Assembly (NCBI GenBank): GCA_035690365.1 | Contig: DASSKP010000078.1 | Location: 54,337 to 118,336, forward strand | Source of the DNA: Mycobacteriales bacterium | Lineage (GTDB): Bacteria; Actinomycetota; Actinomycetes; JAFAQI01 | DNA length: 64,000 bases | Direction of reading: 5' to 3' | In this document: piece after piece, positions 2,042 through 58,433 of the stretch | Layout of the letters: each line of letters starts with the position of its first letter | Numbering within the stretch: position 1 is the first letter of the stretch | Notes under the pieces: generated by a model | Told to the model about the DNA's origin: nothing | Databases searched by the model: none | What the model saw: the letters and a program-made list of their open reading frames with translations, nothing else | Position numbers and translations under genes: made by a program

Positions 2042-2045
2042 GTCG

Positions 2046-37160: not shown

Positions 37161-38268
37161 CCGGCCCCAGCACCTGTTCGGCGATGAGTTCTTCCAGGTG
37201 ACGGTCGTCCCAGTAGTTGAGCTGCCATGACTTCGCGCGGCGGAAGTAGAGCTGGACGTCGAAGTCGAGGGTGAAGCCGTTGCCGCCGAAGACCTGCTGC
37301 GCCATCGCCGTGACGTCGCGGAAGGTCTTGCCGGCGTACAGCTTCGCCATCGGAGCGAGCCGCTCCACCGGCCGGTCCTCGGCTCGCGCCCACGCGGCCT
37401 CCCAGACGAGTGTCTGAGTGCCGTCGACTGCGGCGGTCGCGTCGGCGAGGTAGTGGGCAATCGCCTGGAACGCGCCGAGCGGCCGGTCGAACTGCTCTCG
37501 TTTCTGCGCGTAGTCGACGGTGAGCTCGAGAGCGGCGCGAGCGCCTCCGACTGCTTGTGCGGCGAGCAGGATCGCGCCGTCGAGCATCGTCTCCTGCCAG
37601 CACTCCCAGCTGTCGGCTGTGCCGAGCACTCCTTCGGCCGGCACCGTCACTCCGTCGAACGTCACGTGGAACTGCGTGTCGGACGCGACCGTCAACTGCT
37701 GCTCCAGCGTCAGTCCCGGCGCACCGGCATCGACGAGGACGAGTACGACGCCCTCGGGTGAGCGGGCGAGGACCAGCAACGCATCGGCCGCGCGGGCGAA
37801 CGACACGTGCTGCTTCACGCCGTCGAGGACGTAGCCGCCGCCGGCCGGCGTCGCGGTGACCTGGACGCCTTCCGGGCCGAAGCCGCCGCCCGGCTCGAGC
37901 CAGGCAACCGTGAGCACCGCCTCACCGGTCGCGATGCGTGGCAGCCAGCTCTGCTTCTGGGCGTCGCTGCCGGCGCGCCGCAACGCGCCGGCGGCGAGCA
38001 CGCAGGAGACGAAGTGCGGGCTCGGAGCAAGCGATCGGCCGAGCTCTTCGTAGACGATCGCGGCGTCGAGCATCGTCATGCCGCTGCCGCCGAACTCCTC
38101 CGGCAACGTCAGGCCGAGAAGGCCGAGCTCGGCGAGCGCGGTCCAGAACGCGGGGGAGTAGCCGACCGCGTCGTTCTCGAGCTTGCGCACCATGTCGAGG
38201 CCGCCGTGCCGCGTGCACGTGCGGCGGACCGAGTCGCGGAGCAGCTCCTGCTCGGGCGTGAAGTCCAT
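37147..38268 (-). CDS. Acyl-CoA dehydrogenase
   Basis: The in-frame ATG (MDFTPEQELLRD) lies inside the longer track ORF. It has the ACAD N/M/C domain pattern and is 373 aa. Confidence 0.85.
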   Translation of the reverse strand: MDFTPEQELLRDSVRRTCTRHGGLDMVRKLENDAVGYSPAFWTALAELGLLGLTLPEEFGGSGMTMLDAAIVYEELGRSLAPSPHFVSCVLAAGALRRAGSDAQKQSWLPRIATGEAVLTVAWLEPGGGFGPEGVQVTATPAGGGYVLDGVKQHVSFARAADALLVLARSPEGVVLVLVDAGAPGLTLEQQLTVASDTQFHVTFDGVTVPAEGVLGTADSWECWQETMLDGAILLAAQAVGGARAALELTVDYAQKREQFDRPLGAFQAIAHYLADATAAVDGTQTLVWEAAWARAEDRPVERLAPMAKLYAGKTFRDVTAMAQQVFGGNGFTLDFDVQLYFRRAKSWQLNYWDDRHLEELIAEQVLGPVSSR

Positions 38269-38291
38269 GTCCACGGAAAGGTGCTCCTCGC

Positions 38292-38777
38292 TCAGCTCTG
38301 CTCGGGTTGCCAGGACTCGCCTCGGCGGGTCCAGGGGTTGTCGTCGGCCGTCGTGGGGATCGCGACGCGTGCGGTGCAGGTCGTCGCCAGCCGGTCGTCG
38401 GCGTGCATCGTCACGTCGAGGGACACCCAGCCGCAGCCGGTGTCGTCGACATCGACGCCGGTCACCGTGCCGCGCAACGTCATCGTGTCGCCGGGGAACA
38501 CGGAGTCCTTCATCCGGAAACCGACCTTGCCGAGCCGGCCGCGGGGACCGGTCCAGTCGGTGATGTAGCGCTCGAACCACGCCGCCTGGTTGGGCGCGTT
38601 CATGAAGATGTCGCGCACGCCGTTGCGCTCGGTGGCGAAGTGGTAGTCGTGGTGCTGCGGTCGCCAGTCGCGCGTCGCCAGCGCGCCGACGACGACCGTG
38701 GTCGCCGTGACGTCGTAGTCGAGCTGCGGCAGCTGGTCGCCGACCTTGACGTTGTCGACGGTCAACGGAGTGGTCAT
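38292..38777 (-). CDS. MaoC-family (R)-specific enoyl-CoA hydratase, hotdog fold
   Basis: The start MTTPLTVDNVKVGDQLP lies inside the longer track ORF. The product is 161 aa. Confidence 0.8.
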   Translation of the reverse strand: MTTPLTVDNVKVGDQLPQLDYDVTATTVVVGALATRDWRPQHHDYHFATERNGVRDIFMNAPNQAAWFERYITDWTGPRGRLGKVGFRMKDSVFPGDTMTLRGTVTGVDVDDTGCGWVSLDVTMHADDRLATTCTARVAIPTTADDNPWTRRGESWQPEQS

Positions 38778-39286
38778 GCCGTCCTCCGGTAGCCGAAACC
38801 TGTCCAGGACTCGACGCCGACGAGCTCGCCGCGGTCGTTGCGGTACTCCACGTCGATGACCCAGAAGCGTCCGGTGCCGAGCTTGGTCTGCTTCTCCGGG
38901 CTCACCGAGCGCAGCCGCTGGCAGGTCGAGATGGTGTCGCCGGGGCGCACCGGCTCGTAGAAGGTGATGGTGTTGTCGGTCATCACCGCCTCCGGCAGTC
39001 CGAGCTGTTCCTTGAGGTCGAAGTGCACCTGCAGCGGAAGCCGCTGCACCTCGCGCCCCGGGGCCCAGTGGTGCGGGCGGAACCACGTCGACAGCATCGA
39101 CGGGGGAGCGATCGGCCCTCCGGTCAGCTCGGCGGCAACCTTGTCGTCCCAGAAAAGCGGGTTGCCGTTCTCGACCGACGCGGCCGACGTCCAGATGTAG
39201 CCGCGCTCGACGGGGAACTCGCCCGCCTCTTCGTACTGCATCTGGTCGATGAGTGCCGCGACCTCGGTCGGCAGCTCCTCACTCAT
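38774..39286 (-). CDS. MaoC-like N-terminal hotdog-domain protein (ChsH2-like partner subunit)
   Basis: The start is MSEELPTEVAALIDQ. It is translationally coupled to the neighbouring genes on both sides. Confidence 0.75.
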   Translation of the reverse strand: MSEELPTEVAALIDQMQYEEAGEFPVERGYIWTSAASVENGNPLFWDDKVAAELTGGPIAPPSMLSTWFRPHHWAPGREVQRLPLQVHFDLKEQLGLPEAVMTDNTITFYEPVRPGDTISTCQRLRSVSPEKQTKLGTGRFWVIDVEYRNDRGELVGVESWTGFGYRRTA

Positions 39287-40446
39287 GCGATCACCCCGTC
39301 GGTTCGAAGCTGTGCGATCTCGTCGGCTGTGAAGCCGGCGTCGGTCAGGACCGAGTCGGTGTCGGTGCGGCTGCGGTCCGGCAGGTCGTACGACGTCCTG
39401 CGACTCGCCCCGGCCAGCAGAGGAGCGAGCTGTCGGAACGACTTTTCGCCGGTCGGCGGTTGCGCGGTCGCGACTGCGTCGCGGTCGGTGAACTGTGCGG
39501 CCGACGATGCCTCGGCGGGTGACAGCACGGGGGCGACGCAGGTGTCGGATGCCGCGAGCTCCGCGACCCACTCGTCGCGAGTGCGCGTCGCGAAGCACTT
39601 CGCGAGCTCTGCCCGGACGTCTTCCTGCGCGTCGGCGTCGTACTGCTTGCCGGTCAGCTGCTCGAGCCCGAGCAGCCGGCAGAGGTTGCCCCAGAAGCGC
39701 GGTTCGATCGCCGCGACCGACAGCCACTCGCCGTCGGCGGCGACGTAGGTGTCGTAGCAGGCGTAACGGCCCCCGAGCGGAGCCGTGCCCGGCCCGGGCT
39801 CGCGTCCGGTCGCGAGGTGCTCGTCGACCTGCAGCGCCATCAACGACAGCATGCCGTCGGCGACCGAGACGTCGACGTAGGTCCCGTCACCGGTGTGCTC
39901 GCGCGCGACGAGCGCCGCCAGGATGGCCGTGACGGCATGCAAGCCGCCGCCGGCGCTGTCGGCGACGGTCGCACCGGGCACGGGCGGCTTGCCGCCCTCG
40001 CCTCGCTCGGAGTTGTGCAGGTAACCGGACACGGCGAGGTAGTTGAGGTCGTGACCCGCCCACTGCGACCACGGGCCGGTCTGGCCGTAGCCGCTCGTCG
40101 AGCAGTAGACGATGCGTGGGTTGCGGCTCTTCACGTCGTCGTAGCCGATGCCGAGGCGGGCGACGACGCCGGGACGGAAGCTCTCGAGCACGACGTCGGC
40201 GTGCTCGGTGAGGCGAAGGAACGTCTCGCGGCCGCCGTCGCTCTTGAGATCGAGCTGGATGCGCTGCGTGCCCCGGCCGCCGCTGTAGGCGTGGGCCGGC
40301 GGGGTGAGCTGGGCGCCGGCGTCCTTGGCGAGCGGCGCGACCTTGACGACGCAGGCGCCGTAGTCGGCAAGCCATGCCGCGGCGCGCGCCGAAGGACCGA
40401 CGCTCGACAGGTCGAGCACGGTCGTCTTCGCGAGCGGACCCGGCAT
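39283..40446 (-). CDS. CaiB/BaiF family III CoA-transferase
   Basis: The start is MPGPLAKTTVLDLSSVGPSA. It has family III CoA-transferase motifs and is 388 aa. It corresponds to the C-terminal half of the fused 797-aa track ORF. Confidence 0.85.
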   Translation of the reverse strand: MPGPLAKTTVLDLSSVGPSARAAAWLADYGACVVKVAPLAKDAGAQLTPPAHAYSGGRGTQRIQLDLKSDGGRETFLRLTEHADVVLESFRPGVVARLGIGYDDVKSRNPRIVYCSTSGYGQTGPWSQWAGHDLNYLAVSGYLHNSERGEGGKPPVPGATVADSAGGGLHAVTAILAALVAREHTGDGTYVDVSVADGMLSLMALQVDEHLATGREPGPGTAPLGGRYACYDTYVAADGEWLSVAAIEPRFWGNLCRLLGLEQLTGKQYDADAQEDVRAELAKCFATRTRDEWVAELAASDTCVAPVLSPAEASSAAQFTDRDAVATAQPPTGEKSFRQLAPLLAGASRRTSYDLPDRSRTDTDSVLTDAGFTADEIAQLRTDGVIA

Positions 40447-41627
40447 CAGAAGTTCTTCGGCAGCCCGAGCTTGCGGCGGGCGATGATGTTCTTCTGAACC
40501 TCTGAGGTGCCGCCGCCGATCGTGTCGAGCACGGTGTAGCGGTAGGTCGACTCGGCGCGGCCCTTCATCGGCGCGTCCTCGGTGCCGACCCGCAGCTGGC
40601 TGCCCGGCCCGGCGAGGTCCATCGACGCGTCGGCGAGCTTCTTGGAGAACTCCGTCGCGAACAGCTTGTACTCGCTCGCCTCGGCGGTGGGCGCCGCGCC
40701 GCCCTTCAACGACTTCGCCACGAACCGCAGGCCGAGCATGCGCGCGACCTCTGCTTGCGCGGCGAGCTGTGCGACGCGGCTGCGGATGATCGGGTCGTCC
40801 TTGAGCGGTTTGCCGTCGCGGGTCGCGGTCTGCAGGTGGTCGATGAGCAGGTCGAGCCGCGCCTTGATCGGCGAGAACGTGAACATCGTGAATCGCTCGA
40901 GGTCGAGCGCTTCGGAGATGTACTGGAAGCCGCGGTTGAGCTCGCCGACGACGTAGTCGTCTGACACGAAGACGTCGTCGAAGAAGACCTCGTTGGTGCG
41001 CTCGTCGCCCATCGTCCAGATCGGCTTGATGGTGAGGCCGGGGTGGTCCATCGGCACGAGGAACAGCGTGATGCCGAAGTGCTTCTTCGCCTCCGCGTCG
41101 GTGCGCGCGCCAACCCAGTACCAGTCGGCGAAGTGTGCCGATGTCGTCCAGATCTTCTGTCCGGACAGCACCCAGCCGCCTTCGACCTTGGTGGCCTTCA
41201 GGCTCATCGCGGCGGCGTCGCTGCCGGCGTTGGGCTCGCTGTAGCCGACGGCGAACTCGACCTCGGCGTTGAGGATCTTCGGCAAGAACTCCTGCTTCAG
41301 CTTGTCGCTGCCGTGCCGGAGGATCGTCTTGCCGATGATGCCGACGCCCTTGCCGATCTGCGGCGCTCCGCGACGGGCCAGCGCTTCGTTGAGGAGGTAC
41401 TCGTAGACGCCGTCGCTGTTCTTGCCGCCCCACTCCTCGGGCCAGGTGATGCCGAGCCAGCCGTGGTCGGCCATCTTCTTCATGAAGGCGCGGCGCTCGG
41501 GGGTGTCGACGATCTGCGCCATGTTCTCCCGGGTCGGGTCCGCGATGTCGGGAGTGGCGTGCTCGTCGAGGAACGCCTCTACCTCGGCGAGAAAAGCCTG
41601 CTGCTCGGGCGTGAAGTCGAAGTCCAC
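40446..41627 (-). CDS. Acyl-CoA dehydrogenase
   Basis: The 393-aa protein starts MDFDFTPEQQAFLAEV. Its stop overlaps the CoA-transferase start. Confidence 0.85.
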   Translation of the reverse strand: MDFDFTPEQQAFLAEVEAFLDEHATPDIADPTRENMAQIVDTPERRAFMKKMADHGWLGITWPEEWGGKNSDGVYEYLLNEALARRGAPQIGKGVGIIGKTILRHGSDKLKQEFLPKILNAEVEFAVGYSEPNAGSDAAAMSLKATKVEGGWVLSGQKIWTTSAHFADWYWVGARTDAEAKKHFGITLFLVPMDHPGLTIKPIWTMGDERTNEVFFDDVFVSDDYVVGELNRGFQYISEALDLERFTMFTFSPIKARLDLLIDHLQTATRDGKPLKDDPIIRSRVAQLAAQAEVARMLGLRFVAKSLKGGAAPTAEASEYKLFATEFSKKLADASMDLAGPGSQLRVGTEDAPMKGRAESTYRYTVLDTIGGGTSEVQKNIIARRKLGLPKNF

Positions 41628-41687: not shown

Positions 41688-41704
41688 TCTGACGGGTCGT
41701 CAGA
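41688..41704. promoter_or_regulatory. 17-bp palindrome TCTGACGGGTCGTCAGA (candidate operator)
   Basis: This is a perfect inverted repeat in the divergent ACAD/ACAD intergenic region, 38 nt upstream of ATG 41742. Confidence 0.4.
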
Positions 41705-41741: not shown

Positions 41742-42806
41742 ATGGACTTCACGTTTTCGCCGGAGCAGCGGGAGCTGCGCGAGGCGGTGCGCGCGCTGGC
41801 CGCCGACCGCTCGCCTTCCGCTCAGGTCCGGACGGCCATGGAGTCCGAGGCGCCGTACGACGCCGCGCTCTGGCGCGTGCTCGGTCAGGAGATGGGGCTG
41901 CTCGGCCTCGGGGTCGACGAGTCCCTGGGCGGAGCCGGCGGAGGCTTCGTCGACGCCGCGGTGGTCGTCGATGAGTCCGGCCGGGCGCTGATACCGGCGC
42001 CGGTGCTGCCGACGCTTGTGGCCGGCCAGGTGCTGGCGCGGGCAGGGAGGCCCGCTGCCGAGGCACTGTCCGGCGTGGTCTCAGGTGAGCAGGTGGCGAC
42101 CGTGGGCATGGCCGGCACCGGCCTGTCCGGTGGCGGCATCGGCTTCGGCGGCGACGCGGGCCTGAGCGGAGTCGTGCCCCACGTCGTGGACGGTGCGGCG
42201 GCGTCGTACATCGTGCTCGCGGGACGCGACGGGTTGTGGCTGGTGCGGCCCGGCGACCGCGGCGTCACGGTGTCGGCGCAGCAGCCGCTCGACCCGACGC
42301 GACGGCAGGCCGTCGTGCGACTGGACAAGGCGCCGGCGGTGGCGCTGGGCGACAGCGCAGCGGCCGATCGCGCGGTCGACGTGCTTCGCGTCGCCTACGC
42401 CGTGGAGTCCGTCGGCATCGCGCGTCGCTGTCTGGAGATGACGGTCGACTACCTCAAGACGAGGGAGCAGTTCGGCCGCGTGATCGGCTCGTTCCAGGCG
42501 CTGCAACATCGGGTTGCGGACATCGCCGTGCAGGTCGAGGCGGCCATGTCGACGGCGTACTACGCGGCCTGGACCGTGGAGGCGTCGCCGGAGGAGCTAC
42601 CGGTCGTCGCGCCACTCGCTCTCGCCGTCTGTGCGGATGCCGCGTGGTATGCGGCTGCCGAGTCGATCCAGCTCCACGGCGGCATCGGCTTCACGTGGGA
42701 GCACGACGCACACCTCTACTTCAAGCGGGCGACCACGACGCGTCTGCTGTTCGGCGATGCGCAGGAGCAGCGCCGCCTCGTGGCAGCACGAGCGCGCCTC
42801 CTGTAG
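41742..42806 (+). CDS. Acyl-CoA dehydrogenase family protein
   Basis: The in-frame ATG (MDFTFSPEQRELREAV) lies inside the longer track ORF. The 354-aa size resembles the shorter, non-catalytic subunit of a heteromeric ACAD. Confidence 0.8.
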   Translation: MDFTFSPEQRELREAVRALAADRSPSAQVRTAMESEAPYDAALWRVLGQEMGLLGLGVDESLGGAGGGFVDAAVVVDESGRALIPAPVLPTLVAGQVLARAGRPAAEALSGVVSGEQVATVGMAGTGLSGGGIGFGGDAGLSGVVPHVVDGAAASYIVLAGRDGLWLVRPGDRGVTVSAQQPLDPTRRQAVVRLDKAPAVALGDSAAADRAVDVLRVAYAVESVGIARRCLEMTVDYLKTREQFGRVIGSFQALQHRVADIAVQVEAAMSTAYYAAWTVEASPEELPVVAPLALAVCADAAWYAAAESIQLHGGIGFTWEHDAHLYFKRATTTRLLFGDAQEQRRLVAARARLL

Positions 42807-43473: not shown

Positions 43474-43502
43474 GCGCCGACTCTAGGGCGCACACTCCGT
43501 CC

Positions 43503-43736
43503 ATGAGCGTCTCGCCTCTTCCCGCCCACGGCGGCGTTCACGTCGACGCGCGCGGCGACGGCCGGGCACTACGCGTCTCGGCCCACCCTGAGCTCGGCGT
43601 CGTCACGATCAGCATCTGGCGGGACAACCGCTGCGTCGCCACCCATCAGGTGCCGACGGCGGAGATGCCCGGCTTCATCGGGCTGTTGACCGAGGCGTTG
43701 CTCGATCGCTCCGTGCGGGCGTCCGCGGCCATCTAG
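43503..43736 (+). CDS. Hypothetical small protein
   Basis: It is an in-frame ATG within track ORF 43467..43736. It is not recognised. Confidence 0.3.
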   Translation: MSVSPLPAHGGVHVDARGDGRALRVSAHPELGVVTISIWRDNRCVATHQVPTAEMPGFIGLLTEALLDRSVRASAAI

Positions 43737-43789
43737 GTCAGACTGACGCCGAACCCGTCGATCACGATCGAGTCCTTACTCTTGGCCGG

Positions 43790-44970: not shown

Positions 44971-45375
44971 CTAGTCGGGCAGCGCTGCGGTGATGTCGAC
45001 CTCGACGAGCTGGCCGGGATAGCCGAGCTGTGCGACACCGAGCAGTGTGCTGGCCGTGCTCAGAGCTGCACCGATCTCAGACCGCGACAAGGCGGTCCAC
45101 ACGAGAGCCAGGTCGGCACGCTCGGTCGACGCGACGTAGATGACAGCGCGTACGACGTCCTCGGGGCTGGCGCCGATGTGCTCGAGGGCGACCGCGATGT
45201 TGTGCGCGACCTGGTTGACCTGCGCGACGAGATCGTCGGGTGCCACGACCATGCCGTCTTCATCGAGCGGGCTCTGTCCGGACAGGTGCGCGTAGCGCTG
45301 CGCCGTCGAGATCGTGACGTGGTGGTAGCCCGGCGTCGGGTGCAGGCCTGGGGGGTTGATCCGCTCGATGGTCAC
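44971..45375 (-). CDS. RidA/YjgF family protein
   Basis: The GTG start overlaps the TetR stop. It has RidA motifs (VNQVAHNIAVALE, AALSTAST). Confidence 0.8.
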   Translation of the reverse strand: MTIERINPPGLHPTPGYHHVTISTAQRYAHLSGQSPLDEDGMVVAPDDLVAQVNQVAHNIAVALEHIGASPEDVVRAVIYVASTERADLALVWTALSRSEIGAALSTASTLLGVAQLGYPGQLVEVDITAALPD

Positions 45376-46025
45376 CGGCGGGGAACCTTCGGCCCGGTCA
45401 CACCCCAGTAGACGAGCCGGATCATGGCTTCGCGAACATCGCCGAACTTGATGTCCCACGCCTCGAAGCCGCTCTGGTGTCCCGCGATCTGCGCGAGCAG
45501 GCCGATGAGCACACCTGCGGTCGCCATCGGGTCGACGTCGTCGTCCGGGTTGAGCTGGCGGATCTCCTCGGCGAGGGCCTTGGTCATGGCGTTGAGCATC
45601 ACCACGCGCAGGTGCCGGAACCGCCGGTCGCCCTCGGTCGAGAGCAGGTCGACGACGCGAAGCGTCGGCCGGTGGGTCCGCCAGAACTCGAGGAACCCGT
45701 CGACCAGCTCCTCCGCACTGTGTACGCCGCCCGCGCCTTTCCAGGTGCGGTTGGAGATCAGCGCGACGAGCTCGCGACCTTCCTCGGCCGTCTGTTCGGC
45801 GACCGCGAGAAGGACCGCCTCGAGATCGACGAAGTATTGGTAGAAGGTCGCCGGGGAGGTGCCGGCTGCACGGGTGATGTCCGTGATCTTCAGATCGCGG
45901 TACGGCGTCTTCGCGAGCAGCGCGATCGTGCAGTCGAGCAGCTTCTGGCGGGTGGCCAGACCACGTCGACCGGGTACGCGGCCGTCGACCGCCCGCAAAG
46001 GTGACACTGCGTCAGACATGGACAC
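45372..46025 (-). CDS. TetR-family transcriptional regulator
   Basis: The N-terminal HTH is TIALLAKTPYRDLKITDITRAAGTSPATFYQYF. Confidence 0.85.
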   Translation of the reverse strand: MSMSDAVSPLRAVDGRVPGRRGLATRQKLLDCTIALLAKTPYRDLKITDITRAAGTSPATFYQYFVDLEAVLLAVAEQTAEEGRELVALISNRTWKGAGGVHSAEELVDGFLEFWRTHRPTLRVVDLLSTEGDRRFRHLRVVMLNAMTKALAEEIRQLNPDDDVDPMATAGVLIGLLAQIAGHQSGFEAWDIKFGDVREAMIRLVYWGVTGPKVPRR

Positions 46026-46034: not shown

Positions 46035-46793
46035 CTAACCGTTGGAAGTGGACGAAGCCGTGAGGAACGTCGGTGGCTCGCCGCCCCCGTGGATGGCGAG
46101 GTCGGCGCCGGTGACGAACGCCGCCTCGGGCGACGCGAGGAACAGGCAGGCGGCCGCGACGTCCGACGGCTGCACCATCCGTCCCATGGGCACCGCGGCT
46201 CCCACAGCCGCGACACCGGCTGCGTCGCCGTAGTGCAGCTCCGCCTGCTCGGTCTCGAGGTAGCCGACGGTGACGAGGTTGACCCGCACCTTCGGCGCCC
46301 ACTCCATCGCCAGCGACTGGGTCAGGTTGGCGAGTCCCGCCTTCGCGGCGCCGTACGCCGCTGTGCCGGGGGAGGGACGCGTGCCGGAGAGGCTGCCGAT
46401 GTTGATGATGACGCCGCCGTCGTCCTGCTTCTGCATGACGGCGTTGGCGCGCTGGGCGACGTAGAACGGCGCGAGCAGGTTGAGCGCGACGATCTTCTCG
46501 ACGAAGCGTGGCGATGCCTGCGCCGCTTCGGCCGGCGGTGAGCCGCCCGCGTTGTTGACCACCACGTCGAGCCGGCCGAACCGGTCGACCGCGGCGTCGA
46601 CGACGCCGGCGGCCTGTCCGGGGTCGCGCAGGTCGGCGGCGACGAACTCGCCGGCGACCGGGCCGGCCGGCGCGTTGCGCGCGCACACCAGCACCTGGGC
46701 GCCGGCTGCGGCGAAAGCCTCCGCGATGCCGCGGCCGAGGCCTTTGGTGCCGCCGGTGACGAGCACGGCGCGACCGGTGAGGGCATGTGTCAC
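46035..46793 (-). CDS. SDR-family oxidoreductase
   Basis: The Rossmann motif is VLVTGGTKGLGRGIA. The catalytic motif is YGAAKAG. Confidence 0.85.
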   Translation of the reverse strand: MTHALTGRAVLVTGGTKGLGRGIAEAFAAAGAQVLVCARNAPAGPVAGEFVAADLRDPGQAAGVVDAAVDRFGRLDVVVNNAGGSPPAEAAQASPRFVEKIVALNLLAPFYVAQRANAVMQKQDDGGVIINIGSLSGTRPSPGTAAYGAAKAGLANLTQSLAMEWAPKVRVNLVTVGYLETEQAELHYGDAAGVAAVGAAVPMGRMVQPSDVAAACLFLASPEAAFVTGADLAIHGGGEPPTFLTASSTSNG

Positions 46794-46814
46794 CCGTATA
46801 TGGTGACACCCGAA

Positions 46815-46831
46815 TCTGACGTCGTGTCAGA
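46815..46831. promoter_or_regulatory. 17-bp palindrome TCTGACGTCGTGTCAGA (candidate operator)
   Basis: It lies in the divergent SDR / echA20-like intergenic region, 41 nt upstream of the TTG start at 46872. Confidence 0.4.
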
Positions 46832-46871: not shown

Positions 46872-47642
46872 TTGGGCATCAGCAGCAGCGTCAGCGAGCA
46901 CGTCGCCGAGGTCGTCGTCGACGTGCCGCCGGTCAACGCCCTGCCCGTCGCAGGCTGGTTCGAGCTCGCCGACGTGATCACGCGTGCGGGTGCCGATCCC
47001 GACGTCCGGGCAGTGGTCCTGGCGGCCGAGGGCAAGGGTTTCAACGCCGGGGTCGACATCAAGGAGATGCAGTCGACCGACGGCTTCACGGCGCTCGTCG
47101 GAGCCAACCGAGGCTGCTACGCGGCGTTCGCCGCGGTCTACGAGTGCCCGGTGCCGGTGATCGCCGCGGTGCACGGTTTCTGCCTCGGCGGCGGCATCGG
47201 GCTCGCCGGCAACGCCGACATCATCATCGCGTCGGACGACGCGACTTTCGGCCTGCCCGAGGTTAAGCAGGGCGCGCTCGGCGCCGCGACGCACCTGTCG
47301 CGGCTCGTGCCCCAGCACCGGATGCGACACATGGTCTACACCGCCGAGCGCGCGACAGCGCAAGAGCTGGCGTCGTACGGCAGCGTGCTGAAGGTCGTCC
47401 CGCGCGACGAGCTTCGGGCGGCGGCGCGCGAGGTCGCGCTGCAGATCGCCTCGGTCGACCCGGTCGTCATGCGGGCGGCGAAGGAGTCGCTCAACGGCAT
47501 CGACCCGGTCGACGTCCGGCGCTCCTACCGCTTCGAGCAGGGATTCACCTTCGAGCTCAACCTCACCGGTGCGAGCGACAAGGCGCGCGATGCGTTCGTC
47601 GACAAGCGCGAGCAGTGGGCCAAGGACGAGGGCAAGGGCTAG
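46872..47642 (+). CDS. Enoyl-CoA hydratase (EchA20-like)
   Basis: It has a crotonase fold, and from memory its sequence closely matches mycobacterial EchA20 (AEGKGFNAGVDIKEMQSTDGFTAL...GLPEVKQGALGAATHLSRLVPQH). The TTG start follows GAGGGA. Confidence 0.8.
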   Translation: MGISSSVSEHVAEVVVDVPPVNALPVAGWFELADVITRAGADPDVRAVVLAAEGKGFNAGVDIKEMQSTDGFTALVGANRGCYAAFAAVYECPVPVIAAVHGFCLGGGIGLAGNADIIIASDDATFGLPEVKQGALGAATHLSRLVPQHRMRHMVYTAERATAQELASYGSVLKVVPRDELRAAAREVALQIASVDPVVMRAAKESLNGIDPVDVRRSYRFEQGFTFELNLTGASDKARDAFVDKREQWAKDEGKG

Positions 47643-47644
47643 CG

Positions 47645-48511
47645 GTGCCGGACAAGAGAACGACGATCGACGAGGTCGTCGGCGAGCTGCGCGACGGCAT
47701 GACCATCGGCATCGGCGGCTGGGGGTCGCGGCGCAAGCCGATGGCACTGATCCGCGCGCTCTGCCGGTCGTCGGTCAAGGACCTGACGGTCGTCTCCTAC
47801 GGCGGACCCGACGTCGGGCTCCTCTGCGCGACCGGCAAGGTGCGCAAGGTCGTTTTCGCGTTCGTGTCGCTCGACTCGATCGCCCTCGAGCCGCACTTCC
47901 GCACCGCGATGCAGACCGGCGCCGTCGAGACGCTTCAGCTCGACGAAGGAATGTTCCTGCTCGGCCTGCAGGCCGCAGCGTGGCGCGTGCCGTTCCTGCC
48001 GACGCGTGTCGGGCTCGGCTCGGACGTGGTCGAGCGGCAACGCGACGAGATCCGCACCGTCGTGTCGCCGTACGACGACCCGGAGACGGGCGAGGCCGAA
48101 GAGCTCGTCGCCATGCCGGCGCTGCGGCTGGACGTCGCGCTCGTCCACCAGAACCGCGCCGATGCCGGCGGCAACGCGCAGTTCCTCGGCCCGGACCTCT
48201 ATTTCGACGACCTGATGTGCCAGGCGGCGAAGCGCTCGTTCGTCACGTGCGAGCGAATCGTCGACACCGACGACCTGCTCAAGGAAGGCTCACACCACAC
48301 GTTGCGGATCAGCCGGCTGTGGACCGACGGCGTCGTCGAGACGCCCAACGGCGCGCACTTCACCTCGTGCGTTCCCGACTACGAGCGCGACGAGGCCTTC
48401 CAGAAGGAGTACGCCGCCAGCGCGAAGTCGCCGGAGGCCTGGCAGGAGTGGCGCACGGCCTGGCTCGACCTCGACGAGGACGGCTACCAGCGGAAGTTGG
48501 CGTCGCGATGA
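47645..48511 (+). CDS. CoA-transferase alpha subunit (IpdA-like)
   Basis: The GTG start is 3 nt after the ech stop. It has a glutaconate/3-oxoacid CoA-transferase subunit A fold. Confidence 0.8.
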   Translation: MPDKRTTIDEVVGELRDGMTIGIGGWGSRRKPMALIRALCRSSVKDLTVVSYGGPDVGLLCATGKVRKVVFAFVSLDSIALEPHFRTAMQTGAVETLQLDEGMFLLGLQAAAWRVPFLPTRVGLGSDVVERQRDEIRTVVSPYDDPETGEAEELVAMPALRLDVALVHQNRADAGGNAQFLGPDLYFDDLMCQAAKRSFVTCERIVDTDDLLKEGSHHTLRISRLWTDGVVETPNGAHFTSCVPDYERDEAFQKEYAASAKSPEAWQEWRTAWLDLDEDGYQRKLASR

Positions 48512-49281
48512 CGACGACGACTGACGCATCGGGCTCGGCGTCCGCGACCGCAGGGGTGCGCAGAGCCGACGTGTGCTGCGTCGCGATCGCCGAGTGCTTC
48601 CGGGGCGACGGGGAGATCGTCGCCAACCCGATCGGCACGATCCCGCGCATCGGCGGCCTGCTCGCCCGCGCGTCGTTCGAGCCCGACCTCGTCATGACCG
48701 ACGGCGAAGCGATGTTCAGCAACGCCGACGGCGTCGTCGAGGCGTGGAACCCCTACCGCTCGATGTTCGACGTCGTCTGGTCCGGTCGCCGTCACGTCAT
48801 CATGGGCGGCAGCCAGATCGACGCCATGGGCAACCAGAACTTCGCCGCGATCGGCGACATGAAGCATCCGAAGGTGCAGCTGCTCGGCTTCCGCGGTGCA
48901 CCGGGCAACACGGCCAACAACGTCACGTCCTACTGGGTGCCGGCGCACGGACCGCGTGTCCTCGTCCCGCAGGTCGACGTCGTGACCGGCATCGGCTACG
49001 ACCGCGCTGCTGCGGCTGGAGCCGCGGCGACGCGCTACCACTCGGTGCGGTTCGTCGTGACCAACCTCGCCGTGCTCGACTTCGAGACGCCGGACCACCG
49101 AATGCAGCTGCGTTCCGTGCACCCGGGCGTGACGGTCGACGACGTCGTTGCCGCGACCGGCTTCGAGCTCGTCGTCCCGGCTGACGTGCCGGAGTCGAGG
49201 ACGCCGACCGAGGCCGAGCTCGCGTTGCTCGAGCAGATCGACCCGGCGGGCGAGCGCTTCGCCGAGGTCCCCGATGCCTGA
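48508..49281 (+). CDS. CoA-transferase beta subunit (IpdB-like)
   Basis: Its ATG overlaps the alpha-subunit stop (ATGA). It corresponds to the C-terminal part of the 570-aa track ORF. Confidence 0.8.
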   Translation: MTTTTDASGSASATAGVRRADVCCVAIAECFRGDGEIVANPIGTIPRIGGLLARASFEPDLVMTDGEAMFSNADGVVEAWNPYRSMFDVVWSGRRHVIMGGSQIDAMGNQNFAAIGDMKHPKVQLLGFRGAPGNTANNVTSYWVPAHGPRVLVPQVDVVTGIGYDRAAAAGAAATRYHSVRFVVTNLAVLDFETPDHRMQLRSVHPGVTVDDVVAATGFELVVPADVPESRTPTEAELALLEQIDPAGERFAEVPDA

Positions 49282-50338
49282 CGCACTGGCGCCGATCGCG
49301 ACGCGGCTGACCGAGCTCTTCGGCATCCGCTACCCGATCGTCCAGACCGGCATGGGATGGGTCGCGACCCCACAGCTCGCCGCCGCGACGTCCGCGGCCG
49401 GCGGCCTCGGGATCCTCGCCGCCGCGACGATGTCGCTCGACGAGCTCCGTCGCGCGGTGAAAGAGGTACGCGAGCGCACCGACGCGCCGTACGGCGTCAA
49501 CATGCGCGCCGACCAGCCGGACGTCGTCGAACGGGTCGACCTGCTGATCCGCGAGGGTGTGCGGGTGGCGTCGTTCGCGATGGCGCCGAAGCAGGACCTG
49601 ATCAAGCGACTGCACGACGGCGGCGTGCTCGTGATGCCGTCGATCGGCGCGAAGCGTCACGCCGAGAAAGTCGCCGCGTGGGGCGTCGACGCGGTGCTCG
49701 TGCAGGGTGGTGAAGGCGGTGGCCACACCGGCTCGGTGCCGACGACACTGCTGCTGCCGCAGGTCGTCGACACCGTCGACGTACCCGTCGTCGCTGCCGG
49801 CGGCTTCTTCGACGGCCGAGGTCTGGTCGCCGCGCTGTCCTACGGCGCGAGTGGTGTCGCAATGGGCACGCGCTTCCTGCTGACGGCCGACAGTCCCGTG
49901 CCGGAGGCGGTCAAGCGGCACTACCTGTCCAAGTCGGTCACCGACACCGTCGTGACGAAGCAGGTCGACGGCGTGCCGCACCGAGTCCTGCGCAGTGATC
50001 TGGTCGACAGCCTCGAGTCGGCCGGCACGACGCGTCGGTTCGCCGGCGCGGTCCGCAGTGCGCTCGCGTTCCAGCGGCTGTCCGGCACGCCGTGGCGCGA
50101 CATGGTCCGGGAGGGCCGCGCCATGCGCCGCACTCAGGAGCTGAGCTGGAGCCAGGTGCTGATGGCGGCCAACACCCCGATGCTGCTGCGGGCGGCGATG
50201 GTCGACGGGCGTGACGACCTCGGCGTGATGGCGGCCGGGCAGGTGGTCGGCCTCATCGACGATCTGCCGACGTGCGACGAGCTGATCCGCCGCATCGTGA
50301 CGCAGGCGCACGACGTGCTGGCGGGTCTTCCGGCCTGA
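49274..50338 (+). CDS. Nitronate monooxygenase / NAD(P)H-dependent flavin oxidoreductase family (Rv3553-like)
   Basis: It has an FMN TIM-barrel with the motifs YPIVQTGMGWVA and GGEGGGH. Its start overlaps the upstream gene by 8 nt. Confidence 0.8.
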   Translation: MPDALAPIATRLTELFGIRYPIVQTGMGWVATPQLAAATSAAGGLGILAAATMSLDELRRAVKEVRERTDAPYGVNMRADQPDVVERVDLLIREGVRVASFAMAPKQDLIKRLHDGGVLVMPSIGAKRHAEKVAAWGVDAVLVQGGEGGGHTGSVPTTLLLPQVVDTVDVPVVAAGGFFDGRGLVAALSYGASGVAMGTRFLLTADSPVPEAVKRHYLSKSVTDTVVTKQVDGVPHRVLRSDLVDSLESAGTTRRFAGAVRSALAFQRLSGTPWRDMVREGRAMRRTQELSWSQVLMAANTPMLLRAAMVDGRDDLGVMAAGQVVGLIDDLPTCDELIRRIVTQAHDVLAGLPA

Positions 50339-52083: not shown

Positions 52084-53265
52084 TCACCCGGACGTCGCCG
52101 CGAGCGCGTCCGACCAGCTCGTGCCCGCCGCGAGCAGGGGGTTGAGCTTCATCACCTGTCCCGCCGATCGCAGCCCGAAGACGCCGCCGAGCAGGTCGCC
52201 GGACCGGACGAGCGCGACCCACTTCGGATCGTCGAACGACCCGCGTACGACGGCGATCTCGTCTCCGGCCCCGGCGAAACCCAGGCACTGGAGCTTGGCG
52301 TCGTACTGGTCGGACCAGAAGTAGGGCACCGGGTCGAAGTCTGCGGGGTCGCCGCAGATGCCGCGCGCCACGTGGTCGGGTTGCTCGCTCGCGTTGGTCC
52401 AGTGCTCGAGGCGCACGGTGCGACCGAGGCGGGCCGACTGCCATCTGCAGACGTCGCCGACCGCCCAGACGCCTGGCGCGGCCTGCAGCGTCGCGTCACA
52501 CACGACGCCGTCGTCGATGGGGAGGCCGGAGCCGTCCAGCCAGCTCGTCGACGGCGCGACGCCGATGCCGACCACGACCACATCGGCGGGGAGCTGCGTG
52601 CCGTCGGTGAGAGTCACTTCCTCGACCTGGGCCTCGCCGCTGACCTGCGCGACGCCGACGCCACAGCGGATGTCGACCCCGTGCTCGGCGTGCAGCCGGC
52701 CGATCGCCTCGCCGACCTTGACGTCGAGGACACGCGCGAGCGGCGCGGCGAGGATGTCGACGACGGTGACGTGCGCCCCGCGGGCACGAGCGCTCGCCGC
52801 GACCTCGAGGCCGATGAAGCCGGCGCCCACGATGACGACACGAGTGCCTTCGTCCAGCTCGTCGCGCAGGGCGGCGCAGTCGTCGAGAGTGCGCAACGTG
52901 TGCACCCCTCGCAACCAGACTCCGGGCAACGTGCGCGGCTGCGCGCCGGTGGCGATGACGAGGTCGTCGTACGTGATCGTGGTGCCGTCGTCGAGGTCGA
53001 GCTGGCGGTTGGGTGGGCGCAGAGCCGTTGCGCGAACTCCCAGCCGTAGCGCGACGTCGAGCGCTGCCAGCTCACCACTGCTGCGCAGGGTCGCGGTCGA
53101 CGGATGCTTGTCGCCACGGAGCACCTCCTTCGACAGCGGAGGGCGGCTGTAGGGCGAGTGCTTCTCCTCACCGAGGAGAACGATGTCGCCGTCGTAGCCG
53201 CGGCGGCGCAGCGCCTCGCACGTGCGTACGCCGGCCAGTCCTGCTCCGACGACGACGACGGTCAC
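52084..53265 (-). CDS. FAD-dependent pyridine nucleotide-disulfide oxidoreductase (ferredoxin reductase-type)
   Basis: It has a GxGxxG motif at the N-terminus (VVVVGAGLAG) and a second one mid-protein (VVIVGAGFIGLE). Confidence 0.8.
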   Translation of the reverse strand: MTVVVVGAGLAGVRTCEALRRRGYDGDIVLLGEEKHSPYSRPPLSKEVLRGDKHPSTATLRSSGELAALDVALRLGVRATALRPPNRQLDLDDGTTITYDDLVIATGAQPRTLPGVWLRGVHTLRTLDDCAALRDELDEGTRVVIVGAGFIGLEVAASARARGAHVTVVDILAAPLARVLDVKVGEAIGRLHAEHGVDIRCGVGVAQVSGEAQVEEVTLTDGTQLPADVVVVGIGVAPSTSWLDGSGLPIDDGVVCDATLQAAPGVWAVGDVCRWQSARLGRTVRLEHWTNASEQPDHVARGICGDPADFDPVPYFWSDQYDAKLQCLGFAGAGDEIAVVRGSFDDPKWVALVRSGDLLGGVFGLRSAGQVMKLNPLLAAGTSWSDALAATSG

Positions 53266-54161
53266 GTGGTCTGCAGGTCAGGCTGCTTTCCCGCGACCAT
53301 CCGCCGGAAGCCCTCGCGCCAGCCGATCGTGGTGTGTCCGATGAGCTCGTGCATGCGGGTGAGGTCGAGGCAGACGCTCGCGAGCGACTGGTCGCTGGCG
53401 ACGAGCTTCGGTGTCACGCCGGTGAGCTCGCCGAGGTACGCCGTCCACTCCTCGACGCTCACGCGCTCGTCGCCGCCCCAGTTGGTGATGGTCGCAGGCA
53501 CGCTTGCGACATCGAGGAGCTTGGGCACCGTCGCGACGATGTCCTCGGAGTGGATCGGGTGGAACTCGCTCGGCGCGTCCGGGTGGACCGCGACCTCCTG
53601 GCCGCTCTGCATCAGCGCGAGGTGGAACATCGGCCAGCCCCAGCCGTCGCCGTAGGGCACGTTGAGGCGGGCGATCGTCGTCGGGAGGTTGTAGCGCCGG
53701 GCGCCGTGGCGGGCCGCTGCCTCGGCGGCGATCTTGCAGATGGAGTAGGTCGGCAGGAAGTAGTTGCGGTGGCTGTCGCCGAGCGGGGAGTCCTCGGTGA
53801 AGGCGGTGTGGCCGTCGGGCTGGTAGACGGCAGTGGTGCTGCAGTGCAGGAAGGCGCGGGCGTCGGCGTACTTCTCCATCAGCAACGCGAGGCCGCCGAC
53901 GTTGCCGTCGAGGTCGACGCCCCATTTCTGGCTCTTCACGACGGCGAAGTGCAGGACGTAGTCGACGCTGTCCGGCAGGTCGCTCAGGTCACCCTTGACC
54001 AGGTCGAGGCGCGCCGTCTTCACGCCGGCGGCGTGCAGCGGGTCGCGGGCTGCGTCGTCGCGGAAGCGGGCGGCACCGATGACCTCGTGCTCTTTGGCCA
54101 GTGCTTCGGCCACGGGACGCGCGACGTCACTCGTGACGCCCGTGACGAGATACCGCGCCAT
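53262..54161 (-). CDS. NAD-dependent epimerase/dehydratase family protein
   Basis: It has an N-terminal Rossmann fold (YLVTGVTSDVARPVAEALAKEHEV). Confidence 0.8.
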   Translation of the reverse strand: MARYLVTGVTSDVARPVAEALAKEHEVIGAARFRDDAARDPLHAAGVKTARLDLVKGDLSDLPDSVDYVLHFAVVKSQKWGVDLDGNVGGLALLMEKYADARAFLHCSTTAVYQPDGHTAFTEDSPLGDSHRNYFLPTYSICKIAAEAAARHGARRYNLPTTIARLNVPYGDGWGWPMFHLALMQSGQEVAVHPDAPSEFHPIHSEDIVATVPKLLDVASVPATITNWGGDERVSVEEWTAYLGELTGVTPKLVASDQSLASVCLDLTRMHELIGHTTIGWREGFRRMVAGKQPDLQTT

Positions 54162-54186
54162 GACGACCCCTCCACCCGATCACAAA

Positions 54187-54203
54187 TCTGACGACCCGTC
54201 AGA
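54187..54203. promoter_or_regulatory. 17-bp palindrome TCTGACGACCCGTCAGA (candidate operator)
   Basis: This is a perfect inverted repeat 26 nt upstream of the epimerase start on the minus strand. Confidence 0.4.
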
Positions 54204-54205
54204 TA

Positions 54206-55081
54206 CTAGCCGCGGCGGTGGCGGACGAGGCCTTCCTGGACGACCGAACAGATGCGCCGGCCGTCCTGGGTGTAGATGCCGCCGGTGCCGAGACCGCGAG
54301 CACCGCCGGCCCAGGGGGAGTGCTGGTCGTAGAGCAGCCACTGGTCGGCTCGGAACTCCGAGTGGAACCACATGGCGTGGTCGAGGCTCGCGATGAAGAC
54401 GTTGCCGTCGGAGAAGTCGATGCCGTGGGGGAGCAGCACGGAGTCGAGCAGCGTCATGTCGCTCGCGTAGGCGAGGACGCAGACGTGCAGCAGCGGGTCG
54501 TCCGGCAGCTCTCCGGCTGCTCGGATCCACACCTGCGAGTTCGGCGCGCGGCCGCCCGACTCGCCCTTCGTCGCTGCGATCGGCCAGGGATCGTCGACGT
54601 GCCGTAGGTCGATGGGTCGGGGCTGCCGCCGGCGGTGCGGGAACTTGTCGGCGAGTGGCGCCCACCGCTCCTCGAAGGTCGGCAGCGTCTCGGGGTCCGG
54701 GGCCGACGGCATCGGGTCCTGATGCTCGACGCCCTGCTCCGGGACCATGAACGACGCCGTCAGCACGAAGACCGCTCGTCCGTGCTGCAATGCGGTCACT
54801 CGTCGCGTGCTCATCGTGCGGGTGTCGCGCGTGATGTCCACGCTGTAGATCAGCGGCACCGCCGGGTCGCCGGCGTGCAGGAAGTAGGCGTGCAAGGAGT
54901 GGACGCGCCGCTCGGGATCAACCGTGCGGCCGCCGGCGACGAGCGCCTGGCCGGCGACCTGGCCGCCGAAGACCCGCTGGACCGAGGTGTCCGGAGACAG
55001 GCCGCGGAACAACGTGTCCTCGAGCTGCTCGATGTCGAGCAGCTTGAGCAACAGGTCGAGCGGCTGGTCCTCCGTCGTCAC
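54206..55081 (-). CDS. Acyl-CoA thioesterase II (TesB-like)
   Basis: It has a double hotdog fold, and its N-terminus aligns with TesB (LLKLLDIEQLEDTLFRG). The GTG start at 55081 is preferred, because ATG 55138 would overlap the divergent gene. Confidence 0.8.
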   Translation of the reverse strand: MTTEDQPLDLLLKLLDIEQLEDTLFRGLSPDTSVQRVFGGQVAGQALVAGGRTVDPERRVHSLHAYFLHAGDPAVPLIYSVDITRDTRTMSTRRVTALQHGRAVFVLTASFMVPEQGVEHQDPMPSAPDPETLPTFEERWAPLADKFPHRRRQPRPIDLRHVDDPWPIAATKGESGGRAPNSQVWIRAAGELPDDPLLHVCVLAYASDMTLLDSVLLPHGIDFSDGNVFIASLDHAMWFHSEFRADQWLLYDQHSPWAGGARGLGTGGIYTQDGRRICSVVQEGLVRHRRG

Positions 55082-55136
55082 CCGCCGATTGTCGCAGCGA
55101 CCGGCAGGTGTCAGGCCACCTGGATAGCGTCGGGCC

Positions 55137-55685
55137 ATGAGTCGCCTGGTCGTCATGTTGTCGATGTCGCTCGACGGGTTCTTCGAGGGACCGGACGCCG
55201 ACATCTCCTGGCACCACGTCACCGAGGAGCTGCACCGGGACATGAACGCGCTGCTCGGCGCGAGCGGCGGCCTGCTCAACGGTCGTCGCAACTGGGAGCT
55301 CATGGCCGGTTTCTGGCCCGACGTCCCCTCCGACGAGCCCGAGGTGATGCAGGAGTTCTCCGCCATTTGGAACCGGATCCCGCAGCATGTGTTCTCGACG
55401 ACGCTGGACCGGGTCGAGCACGGCGCGATCCTGCACCGATCTGTCGACGTCGTACCCGATCTGAAGGCGCAGGCCGACGGGGACCTCTACGCCGGCGGCG
55501 GCACACTGGCGGCCGAGCTCGCCAGACGCGGCTGGGTCGACAGCTACCTGCTGCACGTCGTTCCCGTCGTGCTCGGCGACGGGACGCCGCTGTTCGCCAA
55601 AGGGCAGCGCCAGGAGCTGCAGCTGGTGGCGCAGAAGACGTACGACGGCGGCGTCGTCCAGCTGAGGTACGACGTCATTCGGTGA
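55137..55685 (+). CDS. Dihydrofolate reductase-family protein (RibD C-terminal-like)
   Basis: It has the pattern LVVMLSMSLDGFFEGPD...LLNGRRNWE. Confidence 0.7.
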   Translation: MSRLVVMLSMSLDGFFEGPDADISWHHVTEELHRDMNALLGASGGLLNGRRNWELMAGFWPDVPSDEPEVMQEFSAIWNRIPQHVFSTTLDRVEHGAILHRSVDVVPDLKAQADGDLYAGGGTLAAELARRGWVDSYLLHVVPVVLGDGTPLFAKGQRQELQLVAQKTYDGGVVQLRYDVIR

Positions 55686-55703
55686 CGTCCGCGCCGGCAG
55701 CGG

Positions 55704-55982
55704 CTATTCGCCGTCGCTGCCGAGAAGCGCGGCGAGCAGGTCGGCGTCGACATCGTCCAGATCGAGCACCTTCGTCCGGCTCTTGAAGCCGGTCGCGATG
55801 CGCACGCTGTGCCGCGGCACCCCTAGCGCAGCCGACACCGACCTGAGCACGGCGTCGTTGGCCTTGCCGTCGACCGCAGGCGCGGTCACGCGCACGATCA
55901 GGATCGGCGGCTCGTCAGAGCCATAACGGCCGCCGACGCGCGCGTGCTTCGCACCCGGGTAGACGCGAACGCTCAGCCGCAC
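55704..55982 (-). CDS. DUF167 (YggU-like) protein
   Basis: It has a GTG start. The core is VRLSVRVYPGAKHARVGG...ANDAVLRSVSAALGVPRHSVRIATGFKSRTKVL. Confidence 0.6.
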   Translation of the reverse strand: MRLSVRVYPGAKHARVGGRYGSDEPPILIVRVTAPAVDGKANDAVLRSVSAALGVPRHSVRIATGFKSRTKVLDLDDVDADLLAALLGSDGE

Positions 55983-55993
55983 GACGCCATTGT

Positions 55994-56467
55994 TCAGGCT
56001 TCGTCGTAGGCGCGTTGCAGCTCGGCGACGTCGAGCTTCTGCATCTTCAGCATTGCCTGCGTCGCGGCCGCGGCGCGCTTGCTGTCCGGACCGCTGATCA
56101 GGCCGAACAGCTGCCGAGGCACGACCTGCCACGACAGGCCGTACTTGTCCTTGAGCCAGCCGCACTGGCTGTACTCGCCGCCTTCACCGAGCGCCTTCCA
56201 GTAGTGGTCGACCTCGTCCTGGTCGTCGCAGTCGATCTGCAGAGAGATCGCTTCCGTGAAGGTGAACTCCGGGCCACCATTGAGTGCGACGTACGGCCGG
56301 CCATCCAGCTCGAACTCAACAGTTCCGACACGGCCGGGTTCGCCGGGACCGCCTTCGCTCCAACGCATGATGCTGACGATCCGTGAGTTCTTGAAAAGCG
56401 ACGTGTAGAACGTCGCCGCTTCTTCCGCCTGGTCGTCGAACCACAGGAACGTCCGGATTGCCTGCAT
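55994..56467 (-). CDS. VOC-family protein (PhnB-like)
   Basis: The 157-aa protein has a glyoxalase-fold. Confidence 0.7.
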   Translation of the reverse strand: MQAIRTFLWFDDQAEEAATFYTSLFKNSRIVSIMRWSEGGPGEPGRVGTVEFELDGRPYVALNGGPEFTFTEAISLQIDCDDQDEVDHYWKALGEGGEYSQCGWLKDKYGLSWQVVPRQLFGLISGPDSKRAAAATQAMLKMQKLDVAELQRAYDEA

Positions 56468-56470
56468 GAA

Positions 56471-57238: not shown

Positions 57239-57308
57239 GGCTGCCTCCTCGCTGACGTGCTCAGACTGTCACGAGGTACGACGTCCTGCCGGGCCGGAAA
57301 TCATCGGC

Positions 57309-58412: not shown

Positions 58413-58433
58413 CGGAACGTCTCCCGGAGATGG

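Follow-up and report, generated by a model that had tools for sequence, protein, structure and literature searches.

A recurrent palindrome at CoA-dependent catabolic genes of actinobacteria is a probable operator of a TetR_C_38-type repressor

A palindrome of the form TCTGAC-N5-GTCAGA recurs in the 64-kb stretch of actinobacterial DNA analysed here (hereafter, the window). It is real, it is conserved, and the functions around it are coherent; as a gene switch it is of an ordinary kind, and apparently undescribed. From sequence comparison, the element is best explained as the operator of an uncharacterized TetR subfamily. Most likely, with a probability that we put at roughly three in four, the cognate repressor is the protein encoded at 45372-46025 (minus strand), a candidate regulator of 217 aa with TetR_N (PF00440) and TetR_C_38 (PF19352) domains, whose gene is the second of an SDR-TetR operon.

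A search with up to one mismatch returned exactly four matches in the window, where dinucleotide-preserving shuffles predict 0.16, and none of 100 shuffles reached four sites. Three matches are exact (41688-41704, 46815-46831 and 54187-54203) and the fourth (63444-63460) carries one mismatch. The search and a reading back of the sequences reproduced all four coordinates and quoted sequences of the first-pass annotation of this DNA; the GC background, which it had put at about 72%, is 69.9% in the window. Degenerate copies with up to three mismatches are not enriched (27 found, 29.9 expected), so that the signal consists of four near-perfect copies and not of a diffuse word bias. Scanned over the 64 kb, a weight matrix made from 163 sites at TetR-homologue loci found only sites 1 to 4 to be strong (scores 29.8, 25.1, 33.5 and 21.0) and yielded approximately none in shuffles. 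Although only 12 bases are specified and site 4 carries a mismatch, the idea that a functionless word recurs here by chance has a negligible probability in view of the shuffles, the 163 further sites in related loci and the origin of most of the listed metagenomic matches in high-GC DNA, where an AT-rich word is least expected.

Symmetrized counts over the 163 sites extend the element to a 19-bp palindrome, A-TCTGACG-N3-CGTCAGA-T. The flanking A at -1 and T at +1, a feature already remarked on in the first-pass annotation, are present in 91% of the sites, and the inner G/C in 78%. The centres of the CTGAC and GTCAG cores lie 10 bp apart, which is one helical turn, and the whole has the geometry of a TetR operator (a palindrome of ~15-20 bp). 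With genes called from third-position GC and Pfam/NCBIfam matches, all four sites in the window fall between called genes, as had been claimed. The sites had also been described as lying at four divergent promoters of lipid-catabolic genes. Divergence holds for sites 1, 2 and 4, but site 3 separates co-directional thioesterase and epimerase-family genes; the lipid-catabolic label does not extend to site 4, which is flanked by a GH5 gene and an ORF lacking a Pfam match, neither of which shows any sign of lipid catabolism. Housekeeping genes, among them those for RNase E, Obg, IMPDH and MmpL, fill the first 37 kb of the window.

Site 1 (TCTGACGGGTCGTCAGA, 41688-41704) occupies a 114-bp spacer between divergent ACAD genes, 37 nt from the ATG at 41742 and 60 nt from the start at 41627. 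On the plus strand, the target gene (41742-42806) encodes a small ACAD subunit of IpdE2/PimD-like type (Tcur3481, 3.5e-38; NCBIfam IpdE2, 233 bits, under the cut-off of 450), which clusters with a site-flanking Streptomyces ACAD at a threshold of at least 40% identity over at least 60% of length. On the minus strand, Pfam matches outline a target operon (37147-41627) of a large ACAD subunit (40446-41627; 4x28_A, 9e-59; Tcur3483, 4e-55), a family III CoA-transferase (39283-40440), two MaoC/FAS1-dehydratase-like ORFs and a second ACAD (37147-c.38290). The ACAD pair thus resembles heteromeric steroid-type enzymes (4x28, Tcur3483, Tcur3481). Site 1 is the sole invariant block in the orthologous spacers of loci L001, L003 and L004, and has a counterpart in L201 at 15414, after which the gene order is the same as in the window. 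Eight nucleotides past the palindrome stands a hexamer, TAGAGT/TAGACT, conserved between the window and L001, L003 and L004; in the spacer alignment, the ATG of these three relatives lies 6-7 nt beyond it. The gene with this ATG in the relatives appears to be leaderless, with the hexamer as its -10 element.

Site 2 (TCTGACGTCGTGTCAGA, 46815-46831) lies in a 78-bp spacer, with the SDR-TetR operon on one side and an echA20-ipdA-ipdB-NMO operon (46872-50338, plus strand) on the other; it is 40 nt from the TTG at 46872 and 21 nt from the GTG at 46793. It is kept in the same spacer of L001, L002, L004, L201 and L202, and is displaced in L003. The SDR gene (46035-46793, minus strand; adh_short; PRK07856, 381 bits against a cut-off of 255) is the first of its operon. 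The facing operon, assigned through Pfam, comprises an EchA20-like hydratase (46872-47642; NCBIfam PRK07938, 416 bits against a cut-off of 260), IpdA (47615-48511; 6co6_A, 5e-102; 6con_A, 2e-95), IpdB (48508-49281; 6co6_B, 2e-69) and an NMO/IpdC-like protein (longest ORF 49148-50338, true start probably near 49280). Hydratase and SDR thus both exceed NCBIfam equivalog cut-offs. By their match scores, the window IpdA and IpdB are clear orthologues of solved IpdAB proteins (6co6 and 6con are the IpdAB structures of Rhodococcus and M. tuberculosis), whereas glutaconate CoA-transferase, the family next in rank, reaches only 2e-25. None of the window ORFs scanned was recognized as an hsa, ksh or kstD gene.

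Site 3 (TCTGACGACCCGTCAGA, 54187-54203), which has the best score in the window, sits in a 44-nt gap, 2 nt past the thioesterase stop (54206) and 25 nt before the ATG of an epimerase-family gene at 54161. Its target pair (52084-54161, minus strand; Pfam) consists of the epimerase-family gene (53262-54161) and a ferredoxin-reductase-type flavoprotein gene (52084-53265). The longest thioesterase ORF (54206-55366, minus strand) overlaps a RibD_C-family gene (55137-55685, plus strand) by ~230 nt; since the thioesterase domains start only at residue 127, the true start is probably much later.

Could the palindrome act instead as a nucleic-acid hairpin, that is, as an attenuator, a terminator, an RNA-processing site or a REP-like repeat? 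A stem of 7-8 bp with a 3-nt loop could form, and site 3 does lie just past a stop codon. However, both arms are conserved in sequence. Where they vary, it is in one arm only and mostly at the expense of pairing; compensatory changes are practically absent, in a set of sites whose selection by the matrix disfavours double changes. Neither a T-tract nor a terminator-like call accompanies the sites, most sites stand in divergent spacers upstream of both genes, and repeats or terminators would leave the coherent flanking functions unexplained. We regard the hairpin, as against a protein-binding site, as highly improbable.

Site 4 (TCTGAGGAGGCGTCAGA, 63444-63460) falls in a 58-bp spacer between a GH5 gene and a plus-strand ORF; 42 nt separate it from the GTG at 63401, and it runs into the ATG at 63460 of that ORF, which has high GC3, no Pfam match and exits the window (63460-64000). 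The possible target operon on the minus strand (57309-63401; Pfam), whose co-transcription is read from orientation alone, contains genes for a secreted GH5 protein (61878-63401), an alpha/beta-hydrolase-like protein (60194-c.61880), a TetR_C_11 regulator (59572-60141) and an APH-family kinase (58434-c.59570), and a last ORF (57309-58412). An extra GTCAGA half-site is found at 63436-63441, 2 nt upstream of the palindrome. Through its mismatch, site 4 gains a GAGGAGG placed 6 nt ahead of the ATG at 63460; operator, ribosome-binding site and start codon therefore overlap (63436-63462).

As sites 1 and 2 are kept in L201, they form the conserved core. Sites 3 and 4 are missing from L201, the sole relative checked, in which the genes are rearranged; they may therefore be specific to the lineage of the window, and could be weak or non-functional. 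Site 3 has no counterpart in L201, where the epimerase gene is joined into another operon, and no site precedes the TetR_C_11 operon there, GH5 and hydrolase genes not being called in that locus. In L201, the TetR_C_11, APH, 368-aa and epimerase genes form one contiguous operon (1552-5361) beside the ipd genes; within 53262-60141 of the window, ~3 kb (glyoxalase, 3-dmu-9_3-mt-family, DUF167, RibD_C and thioesterase genes) splits the epimerase gene from the other three. Relative to L201, site 3 is exactly at the new junction.

The candidate regulator belongs to a compact family. TetR 45372-46025 has 5407 homologues at E<=1e-20, the closest being from Mycobacteriales/Frankiales MAGs. Its AlphaFold model (pLDDT 87) has nine helices in an all-helical TetR fold, pairing a HTH with the all-helical ligand-binding domain expected of the family, and the top Foldseek matches are all TetR-family proteins, the nearest being EthR, SaFadR, FasR, DesT, BhFadR and TtFadR. 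The homologues form 85 clusters at 50% identity with E below 1e-30. The 30 closest clusters looked up are from Streptomyces, Acidimicrobiia, MAGs and Nocardia, with no mycobacterial cluster among them, and one Streptomyces cluster holds 673 members at 90% identity or more. An attempt to name the family through cluster members was dropped, as the names were generic in 30 of the 30 closest clusters. Both the HTH segment TSPATFYQYF and the half-site are conserved between the window and Streptomyces.

The conservation of the palindrome around this regulator was read from 80 loci of species-representative genomes: a few Frankiales/Mycobacteriales MAGs, several Acidimicrobiia and ~60 Streptomyces species, whose homologues are ~51% identical to the window TetR. 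These loci hold 163 sites with up to one mismatch in 1.46 Mb around the 80 TetR homologues, at 1-5 per 20 kb, a co-occurrence that is partly by design because the loci were fetched through the TetR. A matrix scan placed 193 of 224 strong sites between genes. In Streptomyces, the neighbours of the sites include Ltp-type thiolases (97 instances), acyl-CoA ligases (41) and an ACAD (37), together with DUF35/ChsH2-like proteins, an FMO-type oxygenase and an ADP-forming acyl-CoA synthetase; in Acidimicrobiia, they are Amidohydro_2 and isochorismatase-family genes.

A site adjoins the TetR_C_38 gene in every lineage sampled, three in number and otherwise differing in gene content. The arrangement of a site before an SDR-TetR operon is found in the window, L001-L004, L201 and L181; in L006 and L007 a site immediately precedes the TetR gene, whereas in L015, L090 and L182 it immediately follows that gene, ahead of the next one. 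Promoter regions, including that of the regulator's own unit, are thus occupied at site 2 and in L006 and L007, and the hexamer beside site 1 points the same way. Autoregulation, which had been suggested from the window alone, gains support from these sites, which in several lineages precede the SDR-TetR operon or the TetR gene itself.

The TetR gene of Streptomyces has no good site before it. The ~65 nt before its ATG are almost invariant (CCCCATTTGCA...GATCACCCCTCGGTAAGCTGACGGCATG; ~9935-10000 in L008-L080), and this leader contains a single invariant CTGACG half-site over a -10-like TAAGCT and the ATG. The position of TAAGCT, 6 nt before the ATG, suggests a leaderless transcript. An assignment of the kinase beside the Streptomyces TetR as AfsK and a mapping of the locus to SCO4377-4385 were dropped as the gene order did not fit.

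A test independent of the TetR was made by scanning metagenome contigs with ATCTGACGNNNCGTCAGAT alone, which matched at least 120 contigs. Among the matches listed, 102 of 120 contigs exceed 60% GC, the background in which such an AT-rich word is least likely. These high-GC contigs carry 103 listed sites, of which 91 (~88%) lie outside called genes and 12 inside. Among the matches listed, 78 of the 103 are within 250 nt upstream of a called start, with a median gap of 30 nt, and 13 are intergenic with no called target. The 97 flanking proteins of the matches listed include 24 ACADs, 12 Amidohydro_2 proteins, seven SDRs, six DUF35/ChsH2_C proteins, five family III CoA-transferases, three aldehyde dehydrogenases, two IpdA-type CoA_trans proteins, a single KshA_C and a single P450. 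An equal frequency of the motif in coding DNA, which had been named as the outcome that would speak against an operator, is not what the 91 of 103 listed sites outside genes and their coherent neighbours display. The regulon is far wider than the 64-kb window.

The palindrome might be a genuine operator that is read by another regulator, such as the TetR_C_11 protein or a factor encoded elsewhere, with the TetR_C_38 gene a mere member of the regulon. The TetR_C_11 gene is in the operon downstream of site 4, Streptomyces has no clear autoregulatory site, and 96 of the 102 contigs listed are without a TetR_C_38 gene, as would be expected for any dispersed regulon. Full-length homologues of the TetR are carried by six of the 102 listed motif-selected high-GC contigs (598 kb), a figure that stands without a measured background rate and is suggestive as a TetR-independent test of linkage. 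In contrast, no TetR_C_11-type protein is encoded on any of the 102 motif-selected contigs listed; L201 retains the sites around its TetR_C_38 gene but shows none before its TetR_C_11 operon; and a site is found next to the TetR_C_38 gene in three lineages that otherwise differ in gene content. Apart from the two TetR proteins, no DNA-binding regulator was recognizable by Pfam among the window ORFs scanned. Another regulator is therefore unlikely, and of the two binders put forward in the first-pass annotation, the TetR_C_38 protein is credible and the TetR_C_11 protein (59572-60141) is not.

Taking the TetR_C_38 protein as the cognate and partly autoregulated repressor, we infer that it binds the palindrome and represses the adjoining genes until an effector releases it. 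A TetR dimer would recognize both CTGAC(G) half-sites, which are spaced by one helical turn. The putative operator at site 1 would lie directly upstream of the conserved -10-like hexamer and so cover the -35/spacer region, and bound repressor would block RNA polymerase at the divergent promoters. A consensus promoter scan found no sigma-70-type promoter near any of the four sites, so the proposed overlap with promoters rests on reading the conserved TANNNT hexamers. The predicted targets in the window are the SDR-TetR operon (through autoregulation), echA20-ipdAB-NMO and the heteromeric ACAD operons, to which the lineage of the window may have added the epimerase/ferredoxin-reductase pair and the GH5 operon. 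As KstR2, FadR, FasR and FdmR suggest by analogy, the repressor would probably be released by a CoA thioester that arises as a pathway intermediate; the effector of KstR2 is the CoA thioester HIP-CoA. Because the structural neighbours of the regulator sense acyl-CoA and the regulon is centred on CoA, a CoA thioester is the most likely effector.

The closest parallel to this arrangement is KstR2 of Mycobacterium and Rhodococcus, likewise a TetR repressor encoded inside its cluster with palindromic operators in a few short divergent spacers. The KstR2 (Rv3557c) regulon has an SDR gene (Rv3549c) facing echA20-ipdA-ipdB-Rv3553, plus ACAD genes, and in mycobacteria KstR2 acts at three operators, which lie in divergent spacers close by (PMC3068626). 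The window has the same set of targets, an SDR gene facing echA20-ipdAB plus ACAD genes. However, the operator of KstR2 is the 14-bp AnCAAGnnCTTGnT (PMC3068626), unlike the 19-bp A-TCTGACG-N3-CGTCAGA-T of the window; the window regulator has a TetR_C_38 C-terminal domain, and its family reaches Streptomyces and Acidimicrobiia, with targets other than ipd genes in both. With up to two mismatches allowed, AnCAAGnnCTTGnT has no match in the four site spacers. Structures of KstR2 are present in the PDB, and no KstR2 or KstR chain was found among the PDB sequence matches (E<=0.01) or the top 50 Foldseek matches of TetR 45372-46025. No pattern match to the KstR operator, TnnAACnnGTTnnA, was found near the sites, and the KstR model NF033703 (NCBIfam) gave no match to TetR 45372-46025 and 23.6 bits, against a cut-off of 280, for TetR 59572-60141. 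The earlier judgement that the motif is neither that of KstR nor that of KstR2 therefore stands on operator and protein alike. As far as these comparisons reach, the system would work like KstR2 and fill its place in the window, yet neither its regulator nor its operator is KstR2-like.

The KstR2 pattern, again with up to two mismatches, has 20 matches in the window against 6.5 expected, mostly in coding DNA, an excess that may reflect codon bias. Two of them (43689-43702 and 43767-43780) are in the 43474-43789 spacer, beside hydratase and NUDIX genes.

Other known regulators were compared in the same way. The TetR-type FadR proteins of Bacillus, Thermus and Sulfolobus, FasR and DesT are structural neighbours of the candidate and acyl-CoA-sensing dimers with palindromic operators before lipid genes, but are only 16-23% identical to TetR 45372-46025, which scores far under the cut-offs of the NCBIfam FadR, FasR and FabR models. 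The operators of FadR, FasR and DesT differ from the window palindrome. FdmR (Rv0238) is described as a TetR repressor of fatty-acid degradation and modification genes in mycobacteria that responds to long-chain acyl-CoA (PMC12403877). The present regulon, too, is rich in ACADs. Papers citing FdmR give no motif for it, and among the known regulators compared it is the one that may yet correspond to the TetR_C_38 protein. Since the 30 closest clusters looked up include none that is mycobacterial or specifically named, orthology of TetR 45372-46025 to FdmR is unlikely. SRTF1 of Pimelobacter (Nocardioides) simplex is an autoregulated TetR-family repressor of steroid-catabolic genes with a palindromic operator (PMC7062782), and shares with the present case its protein family, a non-mycolate actinobacterial host and the palindromic form of its operator. 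Its operator is, however, AACTAGCCGTTCTGGCTAGTT, its effector is a free steroid (progesterone), and the parts of its protein sequence deducible from published primers are unlike TetR 45372-46025. An SRTF1-type sensor was accordingly rejected, the published oligonucleotide (AACTAGCC-N-GGCTAGTT) not fitting the 19-bp consensus.

Several further candidates were set aside: XNR_0706 (site TGCGGGGCGC-N35-GCCCCGCGCT), SAV7471 (site GAGAACN3CGTTCTC), Sco4385 (another protein, to judge by its cloning primers, with the N-terminus VNAADRT and lacking a defined native operator), Rv0158 (a GC-rich ChIP motif) and the TAC-N6-GTA motif of McGuire et al. In full-text literature, the half-site strings returned only primers and unrelated papers, and a limited search found no published description of the operator or its regulator. 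The proposal from which this work started, the operator of an undescribed TetR regulon, is thus supported, and 'undescribed' holds within that search.

On a wider and more tentative view, to which we give somewhat less than even odds, TetR_C_38 and the ATCTGACG-N3-CGTCAGAT box would be an ancient actinobacterial master switch for the CoA-dependent breakdown of cyclic and branched lipids, which displaced KstR2 at ipdAB in Frankiales-like bacteria, is a core regulator of acyl-CoA supply in Streptomyces, has never been characterized and senses a CoA thioester as yet unused in biosensors. The operator itself, if bound as proposed, would assign both a function and a DNA target to thousands of unnamed proteins of one TetR subfamily, including a near-invariant core gene of Streptomyces. 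It would also place ipdAB/echA20 steroid-ring-type genes outside mycolate bacteria under control other than that of KstR2, a case of non-orthologous regulator displacement. With the motif, the regulon can be predicted in any actinobacterial genome or MAG; it points to new catabolic genes, among them amidohydrolases, DUF35-thiolase pairs and FMO-type oxygenases. It may help to engineer acyl-CoA supply in strains that make antibiotics, or supply biosensors with a new ligand-responsive repressor. Only moderately surprising in itself, the finding should be useful in annotation, and to specialists in steroid and lipid catabolism and in Streptomyces.

Some smaller features of the regulator and its surroundings deserve mention. 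A weak operator-like sequence at 46000-46016 (reverse complement TCTGACGCAGTGTCACC, two mismatches) lies inside codons 4-9 of the TetR gene, with equivalents at the TetR 5' end in L002 (6408), L003 (9966) and L201 (10008), and could be a putative internal autoregulatory site. It (TCTGACGC...GTCAcC) encodes a conserved N-terminal peptide, S-D-A-A-S-P, which may be conserved owing to the DNA rather than the protein. Some TetR relatives of ~440-480 aa (P0129, P0141-P0145 and similar), one of them from a Phenylobacterium MAG, contain two tandem copies of the module, an arrangement that recalls Mce3R. Lastly, a second palindrome, GTGTCACC-N7-GGTGACAC at 46786-46808, overlaps the SDR start codon and adjoins site 2. 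Among the five spacers compared, both of its arms are kept only in the window and L002, and it was dropped as a second operator as the right arm is missing in L001, L003 and L004; its ACCATATACGG-like centre, kept in all five, may serve as a promoter element.
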